Origin: a virus | Lineage: Duplodnaviria > Caudoviricetes | DNA: 32,261 bases | Direction: 5' to 3' (one strand) | IMG/VR virus record: IMGVR_UViG_3300025087_000234 | Span: 1 to 32,261 of that record | Part shown: positions 4,285 through 31,832 of the stretch, piece by piece | Layout of the letters: each line of letters starts with the position of its first letter | Position numbering within the stretch: the stretch's first letter is position 1 | Program-made: the position numbers and the translations under genes | The notes under the pieces: generated by a model | What the model saw: only the letters and a program-made list of their open reading frames with translations | Database searches by the model: none | Told to the model about the DNA's origin: nothing

Positions 4285-4718
4285 TATTTAATTAAATAAA
4301 CTTGACCGATTTCTCGGAGTTCGCTTTCTCGTATGCTTAAGCGCCCCTGCTCTGCGAATTCTTTTTGTTTTTTTTCCCAAGCCTCTGGCTCCACAAATAT
4401 TGCGTTTTTAGGTCGTCTTGGCACATAAAATAAAACCACAATAAATGCCTCAATGCCCACTAAATACTGGCAATCATACGGTTTTGTGGCCGTAAAACGC
4501 ATTTTTCCGCCATAGAATGTGATCGGCGAATCGACTATCTTGTAATAAAATCCACAGCCGTTTTTTATCGCAAGCAAGTTCACGAGCTGGTGTTCTCTGA
4601 CTGCGTCAAAGCGTATGCTTTTTCCTTTTTCGAGCTTCAATTCAAAGACTGCGCTTCGTGTCGGGTTGTTTTCTTTTAACCAGTTGCCGAAGATGGACTG
4701 GAAGTTTTTTTCAAGCAT
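4284..4718 (-). CDS. RecU-like Holliday junction resolvase (PD-(D/E)XK), permuted motif order
   Basis: MLEKNF, FELK..SIRFDAVREHQ and KPYDC motifs; ATG at 4718. Confidence 0.6.
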   Translation of the reverse strand: MLEKNFQSIFGNWLKENNPTRSAVFELKLEKGKSIRFDAVREHQLVNLLAIKNGCGFYYKIVDSPITFYGGKMRFTATKPYDCQYLVGIEAFIVVLFYVPRRPKNAIFVEPEAWEKKQKEFAEQGRLSIRESELREIGQVYLIK

Positions 4719-4845: not shown

Positions 4846-5164
4846 ATTTTTTACTTAAAAATTTATATTCCTGCGCCCAATTTTTTCTCGGGTATCGCTT
4901 TTGTAAATCAACTATATTGGCTCGAGATAATGCCACGTAGCGGTTAAAATCTTTCACCATAGCCACTCCGCTGTTATGCGCCATACAGCATGGTACTATC
5001 GCCCATTTTTCATTTACCTGTTTTCCTGCATAAATCCACGCATGTTCAAATGTTATCCTGCCGTTGCAGTTGTGGTTCGGCGCATCGCTTCGTTCGTATA
5101 TGCAAAACATCATGAACGGGTCTTGCGTTATTTCTTCTCGTAGCTTAATTGGTATTGGTCGCAT
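4832..5164 (-). CDS. His-Me finger (HNH-like) nuclease
   Basis: C..C-G-R-I-T-F-E-H..IVPCCMAHN pattern, within the recombination cluster. Confidence 0.55.
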   Translation of the reverse strand: MRPIPIKLREEITQDPFMMFCIYERSDAPNHNCNGRITFEHAWIYAGKQVNEKWAIVPCCMAHNSGVAMVKDFNRYVALSRANIVDLQKRYPRKNWAQEYKFLSKKYGRQ

Positions 5165-7307: not shown

Positions 7308-7481
7308 TTAAAATAATGTTTGTTGCGGTATTATCTTTGTTACCGATCCTTGTATAAAGATTTTCTTTTTACGCTTTGGGCATTTATGGCTTTGGGCATA
7401 ATAAAACTGGCCGTTGTTCTTTTTCGGTATTGGCTCGTTTGTTAATATCATTTTTACTCGATAACATCTCGGACAGTCCAT
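7308..7481 (-). CDS. Small Cys-containing protein (57 aa)
   Basis: Hand translation MDCPRCYRVKM..HKCPKRKK. Confidence 0.5.
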   Translation of the reverse strand: MDCPRCYRVKMILTNEPIPKKNNGQFYYAQSHKCPKRKKKIFIQGSVTKIIPQQTLF

Positions 7482-7485
7482 TTTT

Positions 7486-7839
7486 TTATTTTACGCCCAC
7501 CAATATCGCTGGCGGTAATTCTATCTCTTTGTTTTTGGGCTTCCATAAATGGAAGCAGTATTCATGGTTGTTTACGTATTCGCTTTTTTTCGGGTGTATC
7601 TGAATGACCGTTTCTTCGTCACCCCAGAAGATTTATTTGATTTTGCACATTTCTTCCCACGTCAGCGCTCTGCTCGGCAAAGACACGCTTACATGCTCCC
7701 AGCCCATGCCATCGCTCGCTACCACCGTATAATATTTTCCACTAATCCCGATCGGGATATAAAACACTCCGTTGTTTCCAAAACTTTCATCGCTTGCCAG
7801 TCTTCCACTTCGGACTCGGCATTGATTTGGTACATTCAT
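7486..7839 (-). pseudogene. Conserved phage protein (WEHVSVS..HP..EYVN.H..C.HLW family) with in-frame TAA
   Basis: TAA at 7633-7635; the same frame continues IFWGDEETVIQIHPKKSEYVNNHEYCFHLWKP to TAA at 7486. Confidence 0.75.
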
Positions 7840-11598: not shown

Positions 11599-11826
11599 TT
11601 ATTCCTGTTCGAACGCTCTGATTATGAAAGCGTAGAATGCGCCTGCGATAACGAGCACCTTGAGAATAATTTCCCAATAGCCTGTGGTTGCTAAAGCCCA
11701 ATAGATGGTTGCGCTCACAAGCGCTACTCCGAGCAGGATTGCCCTGCTTGCCCATCCCTTAGCCCCGAATTTCTTTTTAATGCCCTCTACTAAAAGAGAG
11801 ACAAAAACGCCGAGAATAATTTCCAT
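11599..11826 (-). CDS. Putative holin
   Basis: Small protein with up to three hydrophobic segments, downstream of the endolysin; ATG at 11826. Confidence 0.7.
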   Translation of the reverse strand: MEIILGVFVSLLVEGIKKKFGAKGWASRAILLGVALVSATIYWALATTGYWEIILKVLVIAGAFYAFIIRAFEQE

Positions 11827-11931: not shown

Positions 11932-12606
11932 TTAATTGAATGGCCTCAATCCTTTCTCCACGTACTCGTCTTTTTTTAGCTGGCTCCATATTCCGTACAT
12001 GGCTGGGTTTATCACGGCCTCCAAATCCCAACCGCCGTACACTAAGGCATTTATCTTTTCAGCTGTCGGCCATATTCCTTTGGCCGTCAGTATCCCGAGT
12101 ATTCTGACTTCGTTCTGATATCCGCCTTTCGGCCTGCCACGGTAGTATCGATGGTAGCACCTTGACTTATCCCAGTCTTTCGGGTTTATCTCATCGCCTA
12201 GGTAGTTGTGATTAAAATACGGCGCTGGGTTTATTTTCTCGCCGTTTACCCGAAGCTCGAAGTGTAGATGGTCGCCTGTTGTATATTTTCCTGTGTTGTC
12301 ACATATTCCGATCTGGTCACCAGCGACTATGCCCTCGCCGATTGACACAAGGCTTTCTTTTAAATGATAATAAAATGTCGAGTGTCCGCTCTGGTGTTCT
12401 ATTTCTATTCCAATACCTCCGTCACTGAATAATCCGCTTCTCGTAACTTTACCGCCATTTGAAGCGTACAGCGCACAGCCATTTCTAGCCTTAAAGTCTA
12501 CCCCAGGGTGATACGGCAATCCCATCTGTTGATAAAAATCTAAATAATTCACGCCGAATGGCTGTGTAATAAAAATGTCTTTAAGCGGTAAACGCAGTTT
12601 GATCAT
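11932..12606 (-). CDS. M23 family peptidase endolysin
   Basis: HPGVD, YYHL and TGDHLHFE motifs; unrecognised C-terminal domain. Confidence 0.9.
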   Translation of the reverse strand: MIKLRLPLKDIFITQPFGVNYLDFYQQMGLPYHPGVDFKARNGCALYASNGGKVTRSGLFSDGGIGIEIEHQSGHSTFYYHLKESLVSIGEGIVAGDQIGICDNTGKYTTGDHLHFELRVNGEKINPAPYFNHNYLGDEINPKDWDKSRCYHRYYRGRPKGGYQNEVRILGILTAKGIWPTAEKINALVYGGWDLEAVINPAMYGIWSQLKKDEYVEKGLRPFN

Positions 12607-12668
12607 AATTTTATGTTAATTATTTATATTTTTTATGGGCAATTTAGTATTGCCCAGTTTAAGAGGTT

Positions 12669-12905
12669 TTACCACCAATGTTTTGCTGAGATTTCTTTTT
12701 TAAAACGCTCATTTTCTGTATTCCAAATAAAAAGGTTGTAAGGCTCTGCGCTGAACGTCATCCCACAAAACTTGTATGCCAGCTTGTGCAATATTATTCC
12801 GTTGCATTTTATTTTGTTGTTTTCTCCAACAAAATTTTCACTTACCAAATTTGTGCAATGCGGACATCTATAAAACTTAGCGCCGTTCGTTAAGCTTGTG
12901 TTCAT
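12669..12905 (-). CDS. Small Cys-rich protein, SD-led
   Basis: CPHC..C..CG; AAAGGAGGT upstream. Confidence 0.7.
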   Translation of the reverse strand: MNTSLTNGAKFYRCPHCTNLVSENFVGENNKIKCNGIILHKLAYKFCGMTFSAEPYNLFIWNTENERFKKEISAKHWW

Positions 12906-12916
12906 AATAACCTCCT

Positions 12917-13237
12917 TTAATGGTTTTCACAATTTCTTATGTCTTGCACTTTTTTAATGCAACCGACCCAAGTGCAACCTTTTGTTTTTTCTTTCGGCTT
13001 GATGTTAAACCGACACTCTTTGCAGTAGCGCACATTGCCGTCATTGTTTAGGCAATAAAGAGCATTGCATTTCTTGCAAAAAAATCTGTCATGGAGCGGT
13101 AAGGTTTTTGCGTGCGCAATCGCTTTCAGTGTTAATGCGTCTGATATTTTTCTTATCTCGGCATTGGTTATCCAATCTAATATTTTTTCAGGATTACCTT
13201 TCCGCTTCCTTGCTCGCTTCCGTTCTTTTCTGGACAT
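12917..13237 (-). CDS. Basic zinc-finger protein, SD-led
   Basis: CKKC..C..CKEC..C...C..C; GGAGGTGA upstream. Confidence 0.7.
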   Translation of the reverse strand: MSRKERKRARKRKGNPEKILDWITNAEIRKISDALTLKAIAHAKTLPLHDRFFCKKCNALYCLNNDGNVRYCKECRFNIKPKEKTKGCTWVGCIKKVQDIRNCENH

Positions 13238-13383
13238 CGTTTCACCTCCACATAAACTTCCGAAGCGCCAATGTATTGTTCACAATCTGCGTTCCGTTCG
13301 TCAGGAGTGCAGTTGAAGCAGTCGCCTTTGCCCTCTTTTTTATAAGGGTCTTTCACTGGAAATAGCTGATAAACGCAAATCAT
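13177..13383 (-). CDS. Small Cys-rich protein, SD-led
   Basis: C..CFNC..C..C; AAGGAGG upstream. Confidence 0.65.
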   Translation of the reverse strand: MICVYQLFPVKDPYKKEGKGDCFNCTPDERNADCEQYIGASEVYVEVKRCPEKNGSEQGSGKVILKKY

Positions 13384-13634
13384 TTTTCCTCCTTGGTGGT
13401 TTCGTTGTAAAGAACAAGCTCCAGTTTTCCTGTATTGTAATTCTTTTTGAAATCACCGCACAGGTAGCATTTGAATTTTCCCTCTCTGCCATAAATCTCT
13501 TTTTCGCATTTTGGGCAAGTTTCGTGATCCATTTTTTTTCTCCTTTCCGTTATCGGTCTGTTTGTTTTTTTTCTTTTTATACAATGTATAAAAATTTCTT
13601 TATGCCACTTAGATATTATGCGTCTGTCGTTCAT
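13380..13634 (-). CDS. Zinc-ribbon protein, SD-led, two in-frame starts (13634 and 13532)
   Basis: CPKC..CYLCG; AGGAGG and AAGGAG before the two ATGs. Confidence 0.65.
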   Translation of the reverse strand: MNDRRIISKWHKEIFIHCIKRKKTNRPITERRKKMDHETCPKCEKEIYGREGKFKCYLCGDFKKNYNTGKLELVLYNETTKEEK

Positions 13635-13658
13635 TACGGCCTCCTTTTTAAAAAACAA

Positions 13659-13931
13659 TTATTTTTTCGGAAGTCTTTCTTCCAATATTGTGATTATTTT
13701 TGTCTGTTCATTTTTTAAAAAAGCGATGTCTTCCTCGATGTGCCTCAGGTGATTGTTTTTTATCAATACAATGTTCTCGTCTATGTTTTGGTGCTTCAAG
13801 AAACATGTCGCTTTTAATATCGCTATTTCTTTTGTTGCGTCTATGTCTGGGTCGCGAAATGTTTTATATACTGCGAACGCCACTCCGCCGAGTGTTGTCA
13901 CCTGCAGTATAATATCAAGGTATTGGGTCAT
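13659..13931 (-). CDS. Single-TM plus coiled-coil protein (possible lysis accessory)
   Basis: N-terminal TM helix; NHLRHIEED..IITILEER. Confidence 0.65.
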   Translation of the reverse strand: MTQYLDIILQVTTLGGVAFAVYKTFRDPDIDATKEIAILKATCFLKHQNIDENIVLIKNNHLRHIEEDIAFLKNEQTKIITILEERLPKK

Positions 13932-25973: not shown

Positions 25974-26342
25974 TTATTCTTCGTCTTCGTTCTCGTCTTC
26001 ATCTTCCAGTTCGCCATTGTCATCGGCTTTCAAAATATCTACGAGGTCGGCTTTCTTTGCCTTTGGGTCAATCTCTATATCCCTTTCCTCGCACATCTTT
26101 TTTAGCTCTGGCACGGTCATCGCTTCGTATTCGTTGTCTGTATCACCATCGCCATTGTCATCGGCTATCGCTTCGGCTCCCTTGATGTCCAAGCGCTCCA
26201 ATGTTTCTTTGTTCAAATAGTCACGGCGTGCGACTAAATGAGCTCTTTCTGCAGGGGTCAAAGCTCCTGCGCTTTTCGCTAATAGCTCAGTCATATAATT
26301 CTGGTCTTTCAGCGAAAGCTCTACTAATGCTTTTTCGTTCAT
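25974..26342 (-). CDS. SAP/HeH-LEM-like domain protein with acidic tail
   Basis: YEAMTVPELKKMCEERDI....AKKADLVDIL. Confidence 0.75.
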   Translation of the reverse strand: MNEKALVELSLKDQNYMTELLAKSAGALTPAERAHLVARRDYLNKETLERLDIKGAEAIADDNGDGDTDNEYEAMTVPELKKMCEERDIEIDPKAKKADLVDILKADDNGELEDEDENEDEE

Positions 26343-31331: not shown

Positions 31332-31832
31332 TTAATCTGGGAGGATTTTGCTGACCTTGTCGAGCGCTTTCCTCAGCTCATCGTCTACGGCTATCTCGGT
31401 CTTGTCTTTTAAGTCCTCGGTATAATTTAAAAACACTTTTACATCGGCTCCGCTTCCCTCTTTCAAGCATTTTCTTTTCAGGGAAAGAATAACATCGCCC
31501 GAGTCATCTTTGAAGTATGTCCGTCTGCGCCTTTGCACCTCGTCATAAAAACCCGATCGCTTTTTCCAGTCAGTCAGCGTTGCTGGATCAATTTTTTGTT
31601 TTTTTGCAAATTCCTCCTGTGTTGCTGGCTCCCTCATCACACTCGGCATTGCTATCCACGTTATGTAATCGTCAAGTATTGATACATTCCTTTCCCTTAC
31701 GTCAAATAAGCCGTCTTTGGTCTTTGTTTTTTCGCAGGTGTTTTCTGGTGTTTCTTTTTTTATCTCCGCTTTCCTTGCCTCTGGCTTCTTCTTTCGCTTT
31801 AACCCTTTTAATTTTAATTTTGTTTTAGTCAT
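31332..31832 (-). CDS. Terminase small subunit-like HTH protein
   Basis: TQEEFAKKQKIDPATLTDWKK helix-turn-helix upstream of terL. Confidence 0.7.
   Translation of the reverse strand: MTKTKLKLKGLKRKKKPEARKAEIKKETPENTCEKTKTKDGLFDVRERNVSILDDYITWIAMPSVMREPATQEEFAKKQKIDPATLTDWKKRSGFYDEVQRRRRTYFKDDSGDVILSLKRKCLKEGSGADVKVFLNYTEDLKDKTEIAVDDELRKALDKVSKILPD

Follow-up and report, generated by a model that had tools for sequence, protein, structure and literature searches.

A block of four small Cys-rich ORFs, served by five strong Shine-Dalgarno (SD) sites, lies in the lysis region of a tailed phage genome, between a small gene with a hydrophobic N-terminus and the M23-type endolysin (Table 1). The genome is the 32,261-nt virus record IMGVR_UViG_3300025087_000234 (Duplodnaviria; Caudoviricetes), positions 1 to 32,261, with an estimated completeness of 97%; the whole of this stretch is referred to as the window. 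The minus strand carries the window's called genes: terminase, portal-like, P22-type coat and ejection-like genes, the lysis region, and genes of recombination and replication. Near-identical records have ~3 kb extra between the two ends of the window, as seen in L162. There was no integrase match among 53 proteins of the phage, no tRNA or Rfam match in the window and no lipobox in its proteins. The sequencing runs in which this DNA occurs carry the labels groundwater, soil or simulated metagenome. A strain variant, L021, differs from the window by indels near 26110-26115 and 9255, in genes for 122-aa and 228-aa proteins, and its block is identical. Elsewhere, the 68-aa DUF7694 ORF (7633-7839) covers just half of its profile, and what follows its stop resembles a continuation; the region 7308-7839 is possibly a broken gene.

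Table 1. Features of the SD-led block and its flanks in the window, and the SD-led units of four relatives. Energies are in kcal/mol; z, folding z-score.
Feature	Position	Strand	Description
Upstream flank gene	13659..13931	(-)	90 aa, hydrophobic N-terminus, SD-free; first small gene past the ejection genes
Fork point	13661..13690	(-)	final 30 bases common to both alleles; ends on base 1 of the stop codon of the flank gene
SD 1, AGGAGG	13640..13645	(-)	intergenic, 5 nt 5' of ATG 13634; -11.8
ORF 1	13380..13634	(-)	start 13634, 84 aa; second SD-led start 13532, 50 aa; basic N-terminal part and two CxxC
SD 2, AAGGAG	13540..13545	(-)	within ORF 1, 7 nt 5' of ATG 13532; -9.0
SD 3, AAGGAGG	13388..13394	(-)	in final codons of ORF 1; start 13383; -11.2
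ORF 2	13177..13383	(-)	68 aa, 5 Cys, orphan; 61-nt overlap with ORF 3
SD 4, GGAGGTGA	13242..13249	(-)	within ORF 2; start 13237; -15.2
ORF 3	12917..13237	(-)	106 aa, 8 Cys, basic N-terminus; single homologue P0002
SD 5, AAAGGAGGT	12910..12918	(-)	overlaps ORF 3 stop; start 12905; -12.9
ORF 4	12669..12905	(-)	orphan of 78 aa with 4 Cys; predicted zinc ribbon
Hairpin	12636..12656	(-)	8 bp, closes the block; A-rich native leader next; U tail absent
Downstream flank, M23 peptidase (endolysin)	11932..12606	(-)	SD-free; diverged version on the alternative allele
Holin-like hydrophobic protein	11599..11826	(-)	SD-free in the window phage
G001 unit			two CxxC ORFs; structured leader, z -3.0; further start-less SD; GC 0.49 vs 0.39
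G003 unit			a single Cys-rich ORF of 57 aa, flanked by the endolysin and the holin-like gene; SD -17.8; leader z -4.4; hairpin with U tail, z -3.2
G006 unit			promoter-like site (by eye); three tandem ORFs, a basic 42-aa and two Cys-rich; SD -11.9, -8.6, -6.6; U-tailed hairpin
G013 unit			promoter-like site (by eye); SD -14.1; 65 aa; U-tailed hairpin; directly after holin-like and lysozyme-like genes

The strength of each SD was computed as a duplex energy with a generic 12-base anti-SD probe, the canonical 16S tail, which may differ from that of the host. The five block starts score from -9.0 to -15.2 kcal/mol with spacings of 4-7 nt, and the coordinates, motifs and spacings given in the preliminary description were all confirmed. 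The starts at 13634 and 13532 share one frame, so that five starts serve four ORFs. The comparison set consisted of 49 hand-curated non-block starts of the window, and 47 of these are weaker than -8 (-7.8 to +2.9 kcal/mol). SD strength is not similar elsewhere in the genome as far as the curated starts go, and the description of the core genes as SD-free holds with two exceptions. One is the start at 5164 (GGGAGG, -10.2), whose motif lies within the final codons of the gene upstream and is missing in its 4 homologues in relatives; the other, at 4718 (-9.3), is doubtful, the motif being far upstream and the start uncertain. The sole score of note in the missing ~3 kb, -9.5, belongs to one doubtful 40-aa ORF. 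By chance, 73 of 2794 internal ATGs reach -9, and the clustering of the block is beyond chance (47 genes, 5 of them SD-led, 4 of these side by side; p = 0.001). Three of the five block SDs lie inside coding sequence that runs upstream of their start.

Native starts of the window lie in an A-rich context with a T at position -1; an extended -10 box occurs 6 nt ahead of the ATG in three of them. In the family, the motif TGnTAnAAT peaks 6 nt before the ATG (15 of 1780 starts at exactly that gap, 3 of them in the window); examples are found at window positions 31832 and 11513 and in relatives. This arrangement suggests leaderless transcripts.

The hairpin at 12636-12656, which had been proposed to end the block, is real (z -4.4), but it has no U tail and falls outside the set of terminator-like sites. 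A long stem covering SD 1 was rejected as not significant (z -1.3). Within the N-terminal part of ORF 1, A-runs (13532-13570) are followed by an out-of-frame TAA just 5' of SD 2, and slippage by one base there would turn the 84-aa ORF into two genes; the contigs of four sequencing runs showed no indel at this place. For the holin-like protein, no family match above cutoff was found. Homologues of the upstream flank gene are present in G017 (45%) and G009.

All four block ORFs encode Cys-rich proteins (4-8 Cys), as first described, and at least 4 Cys are also found in 3 of 23 SD-free small genes. From the CxxC spacing the block proteins are probably zinc-binding, and ORF 1 is predicted to be a C4 zinc ribbon. 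No profile match above curated cutoffs was obtained for the four ORFs in Pfam, PHROGs, NCBIfam or PADLOC. ORF 1 gave sub-cutoff zinc-ribbon matches only, and the sub-cutoff matches include the TFS, RpoP and HVO_2523 models along with generic zinc-ribbon matches. The proteins thus resemble small C4 zinc-ribbon or CPXCG-type micro-proteins in having CxxC pairs in 50-106 aa and sub-cutoff Pfam and NCBIfam matches, but differ in that they belong to no family above cutoff. Among 5.8 billion proteins, ORFs 2 and 4 have no homologue and ORF 3 has one non-self homologue, P0002 (83%, from a 24-kb contig), in which 8/8 Cys are kept. No homologue of ORFs 1 and 3 was found in 50,697 phage records, nor of any block protein in 37 relatives. 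An Atlas search returned hypothetical clusters only, and a PDB sequence search with ORFs 1, 3 and 4 gave nothing under E 0.1. By sequence comparison, then, the four ORFs are near-orphans. AlphaFold models had pLDDT values of 41.5 and 40.2 and were unusable.

The annotated N-terminal extension of P0002 ends in Gly-Gly-Glu-Lys-Met; the frame is kept and the peptide fits a retained GGAGGTGA. Further upstream, P0002 differs, by eye, from the same frame in the window. The SD appears to travel with the gene. The composition of the block is unexceptional: the ORFs have a GC of 0.35-0.43, the block as a whole is not GC-rich (0.37 vs 0.42), and its codon score is inside the range of other small genes (p = 0.37).

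A second allele was found at the same junction. In run X4 (records 10, 11 and 13), which is a possible source of the DNA, the upstream contig, with a depth of 43.1, stops at 13661, and two contigs continue from it: the window allele at a depth of 33.5 and a 1110-nt contig at a depth of 15. The latter shares 13661-13690, then runs through 813 different bases into the endolysin (12494-12537) with 5 differences. At 80% likeness it nowhere matches the block. Run X1 also contains a fragment of this diverged endolysin, and the allele was not found in the fetched related loci or in viral_contigs. If the endolysin start is equally distant, the alternative cargo would be ~740 nt as against 1054 nt in the window. 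Since a second allele begins at the upstream gene's stop codon in one run, the block occupies a swappable slot. Horizontal import, one of three options originally put forward, is thus borne out as to mobility, with the fork at 13661 and the second allele, but finds no foreign signature in GC or codon use. The fork and the first ATG are separated by 26 nt, with no promoter-like site inside; the only site near the fork is a 9/12 match straddling it, which is at chance level (13 found, 9.5 +- 2.9 expected). With no promoter in this gap, the block would ride on the late transcript.

Relatives were gathered by scans with tail, adaptor, coat and portal proteins. Of 44 long records mapped, 34 were fetched (without G020-G025, G027, G030, G031 and G041), plus G001-G003, and their genes were called with our own greedy script, which missed some small genes. 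L009 and L010 were set aside as unrelated phages, and AT-rich short joints were taken as noise. Across the family, the fraction of genes with an SD of -9 or stronger ranges from 0 to 24%, with 21 records below 7% and 16 above. SD-led genes are small in both groups (SD-poor records: 15/17 vs 390/905, p = 2e-4). With the window included, 13 of 819 sense candidates are SD-led small ORFs, vs 0 of 292 antisense. In an exhaustive scan of 17 SD-free relatives, 9 small ORFs of the coding strand reached -11, against none of the opposite strand. Five of the nine were dropped on inspection: in G002 the SD derives from upstream codons; in G005 the ORF is 36 aa and the SD lies within the upstream gene; in G009 one ORF overlaps a real gene in another frame and a second is an internal ATG of IF-1; and in G017 the ORF is a homologue of the window's flank gene. 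A 97-aa Cys-rich gene of G008 (-10.2) was also dropped, being a conserved structural-module gene.

The four units picked by inspection (Table 1) are non-homologous with one another and with the window block. Three of the four are Cys-rich, with at least 4 Cys in 5 of their 7 ORFs, as counted after selection. Two of them belong to the lysis region and the other two to different parts of their genomes; a clear GC excess is seen in G001 alone. Behind the G001 cassette lies a perfect SD, AAGGAGGTGATC (L013:6955-6972, minus strand), with no ATG behind it, perhaps the trace of a lost third gene. The preliminary description had allowed that the block might prove a one-off, near-identical import; instead, non-homologous SD-led cassettes occur in 4/17 SD-free relatives, and no near-identical donor was found in the searches made. 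Its proposed check, whether related phages keep an SD-led block at this very locus, came out negative: the exact locus is not conserved. An excess of SD genes near the endolysin (18/150 vs 31/540, p = 0.012) vanishes for non-membrane genes (6/93 vs 30/487), and conservation at the lysis locus was rejected. In SD-poor relatives, SDs at -9 show no excess (17 vs 18-23 of 907 in shifted windows) and those at -11 a modest one (12 vs 4-7). Cys enrichment among the SD-led small genes of relatives is not significant (5/22 vs 44/376, p = 0.17; 4/14 vs 45/391, p = 0.08). The cassette class is visible through a few strong cases and not as a genome-wide statistic. The SD-led block is real, beyond chance and mobile; it recurs in build, not in sequence or exact position.

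The SD-using sister phages place strong SDs on particular genes. Of 34 endolysin loci examined, 24 yielded a small hydrophobic ORF by a rule blind to SD. The first such ORF past the endolysin is SD-led (-11 or stronger) in 10 of the 24: 7/8 in SD-using, 1/12 in SD-poor and 2/4 in unclassified records. None of 29 endolysin genes reaches -11. Two SD-led lysis-module ORFs match holin PHROGs, and in SD-using relatives the holin-like genes rank 1-5 of 56-80 by SD strength. Strong-SD holin-like genes with an SD-free endolysin are seen at L022:17941-18150, L063:15698-15925, L067:17625-17822, L083:19189-19374, L096:17601-17828, L255:18344-18574 and others; this pairing is a possible lysis-timing device. 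The most SD-biased shared family is Tad2-like (PF11195), SD-led in 9 of 14 members (for example L256:1103-1402, L282:4193-4438 and L290:11538-11795), and 51 of 70 shared families are without SD. Runs of SD-led genes occur in G028 (4 genes) and in G034 and G036 (3 each), and strong SDs are found on an AAA protein and a capsid gene in G019 and G028. Among the small SD-led genes of these SD-using phages, Cys-rich products are few (5/65). Because holin-like and Tad2-like proteins should act in the infected cell, the hosts of the sister phages likely read SDs. This argument may fail to carry over to the window's SD-free group, in which holin-like genes are mostly SD-free. Past the coat gene, in the structural module, G028, G036, G038, G040 and G045 have long runs of glycosyltransferase, methyltransferase and nucleotide-sugar-like genes (by eye).

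Traits of the ultra-small candidate phyla radiation (CPR) hosts include SD-free starts, leaderless sigma70 starts, monoderm-type lysis and occurrence in groundwater. The window phage and its family show wall hydrolases and holin-like genes, leaderless-type starts and presence in groundwater runs, signals that are suggestive of a CPR host. In SD-poor records the sigma70 -35/-10 pair is found 28 times vs 4 +- 3. The Bacteroidota motif TAnnTTTG is not enriched there (37 vs 30 +- 5) and is mildly raised in SD-using records (56 vs 35 +- 6); for the archaeal TATA, SD-poor records show no excess (12 vs 16 in shuffles). The sigma70-type promoters, the lack of excess of the other two motifs in SD-poor records, the missing lipobox in window proteins, the leaderless starts and the habitat together indicate that the host is probably a CPR bacterium. 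Cultured phages gave weak coat-protein matches only and no portal match. The sole match in genome_contigs comes from a Bdellovibrionota MAG, in a contig made up of phage sequence only, and the phylum has 131 genomes; this isolation, and an rpsU with an SD in that MAG, make misbinning likely. The MAG holds a full relative of the window phage and, on another contig, a second weak coat-protein match (G003:C9, G003:C6), probably misbinned. To our knowledge, translation start in CPR bacteria and their phages is largely unstudied. Of the Parcubacteria, 48% are reported to have a detectable anti-SD motif, and many to have lost bS21 (PMC9297842), so that SD reading by the host could fall either way. 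The 37-kb SD-free phage G009 encodes IF-1 just upstream of the terminase (L236:10259-10459); phage IF1 has been reported for huge phages (PMC7162821).

What has to be explained is why SDs are strong here and lacking elsewhere, why the ORFs are orphans, why one junction has two alleles, and why four relatives have analogous but unrelated cassettes. The explanation that we favour, with about as much doubt as confidence, is that the block is a moron-like accessory cassette and that the ribosomes translating it are those of the phage's own host, which is probably a CPR bacterium and would keep its anti-SD. Native genes would be initiated at mRNA ends that are A/T-rich or leaderless. For a small gene, a strong SD would then be a portable start signal, able to work in any slot, even within upstream coding sequence, and a host ribosome retaining the anti-SD would read it. 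The promoterless block would be read from the late transcript alongside the lysis genes. Its products, as predicted from sequence, would probably be zinc-binding host-interaction proteins (for instance in counter-defence or host take-over) under fast turnover.

It is also conceivable, though on the unlikely side, that SD-using phages with a composition like that of the window phage recently supplied the genes, the SDs being leftovers that are unneeded or unread in the present host. The polymorphism of the slot within one population, the SD-rich runs of the sister phages and the missing -9 excess in SD-poor relatives are consistent with such a relic, and an origin in such donors would not show up in GC or codon use. 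However, no donor was found (fetched relatives; 5.8 billion proteins for ORFs 2-4; 50,697 phage records for ORFs 1 and 3), all frames are open with all 5 SDs intact, and the small SD-led genes of SD-using phages lack the Cys-richness of the cassettes. Quite improbable, in our estimate, is a gate set by the state of the ribosome, in which the host anti-SD is ordinarily hidden and becomes exposed when infection is advanced or the cell is stressed, letting a ribosome subpopulation switch on the SD-led genes (cassettes and sister holins). The model for it, from the Bacteroidota, is the rpsU gene of Flavobacterium johnsoniae, for which bS21-gated SD translation has been reported (PMC9976891). The block is like that gene in having rare strong SDs amid an SD-free background, and some SDs fall below -13 kcal/mol, the range given there for gated rpsU; with the generic probe these are one of the 5 block starts (-15.2), with another borderline (-12.9), G003 (-17.8) and G013 (-14.1). 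The high rank of the holin-like timer genes next to SD-free endolysins, the G003 SD lying in a predicted stem and the IF-1 of one relative also suit a gate. The block is unlike the rpsU case in that the host is probably not a member of the Bacteroidota, no bS21 link was seen and most block SDs are weaker than -13; three of the five are weaker even than -12. The SD-poor records are not Bacteroidota-like, bS21 is often lacking in Parcubacteria (PMC9297842), and the strong SDs on the AAA protein and capsid gene suit a booster better than a gate.

The preliminary description had listed first a cassette meant for a second cell, the one on which the host lives. The genes would then suit the ribosomes of that bacterium or archaeon and be expressed in it once DNA or RNA had been transferred. 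This now seems very unlikely. If the host were without an anti-SD, the SDs would lack a reader at home; U-tailed hairpins end the G003, G006 and G013 units, and promoter-like sites precede those of G006 and G013. There is a weak archaeal flavour in the sub-cutoff TFS, RpoP and HVO_2523 matches and in DUF7576 of G006, which among 14 controls also gives a signal in Haloferax and Synechococcus. Yet the zinc-ribbon matches are generic, the promoters are of sigma70 and not archaeal type, the swapped segment of the window has no promoter in its 26 nt, no transfer route was seen, and SD-led genes of the sisters are holin-like or Tad2-like, of which the holin-like ones make no sense in another cell. 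A wider proposal assumes two translation codes, with SD-free starts for housekeeping and SDs that address fast-turning small zinc-finger effectors (in the sisters, the holin-like timer and Tad2-like proteins) to a distinct ribosome pool, either an unmasked host state or the ribosomes of the CPR host's partner cell. We consider it doubtful.

Phage morons are variable insertions between conserved genes, with their own promoter and intrinsic terminator, atypical composition and expression in the prophage state. The window block is like them in bringing small orphan genes into a variable slot between conserved genes, and the G006 and G013 units add a promoter-like site, an SD and a terminator-like hairpin. 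The window block is unlike them in that it has no promoter of its own, no U-tailed terminator and no foreign composition, and it is marked by a translation signal unused in the rest of the genome. Cargo co-transcribed with late and lysis genes is exemplified by stx in lambdoid prophages (PMC8065619). The block is similarly situated in the lysis region, with likely late co-transcription, but its products are small Cys-rich orphans without toxin homology, and an SD contrast is not a known feature of stx cargo.

A literature search, with most subscription journals outside it, found no paper describing cassettes of this kind in phages of CPR bacteria. A family of phages with SDs on 0-24% of genes, on particular gene classes and on swappable orphan cassettes, offers a testable handle on translation start. 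The SD content of a phage could predict the 16S tail of its host, and an upstream SD could be a cheap filter for host-interaction genes in these phages. If gating or expression in a second cell were true, the cassettes would represent a new layer of phage control.
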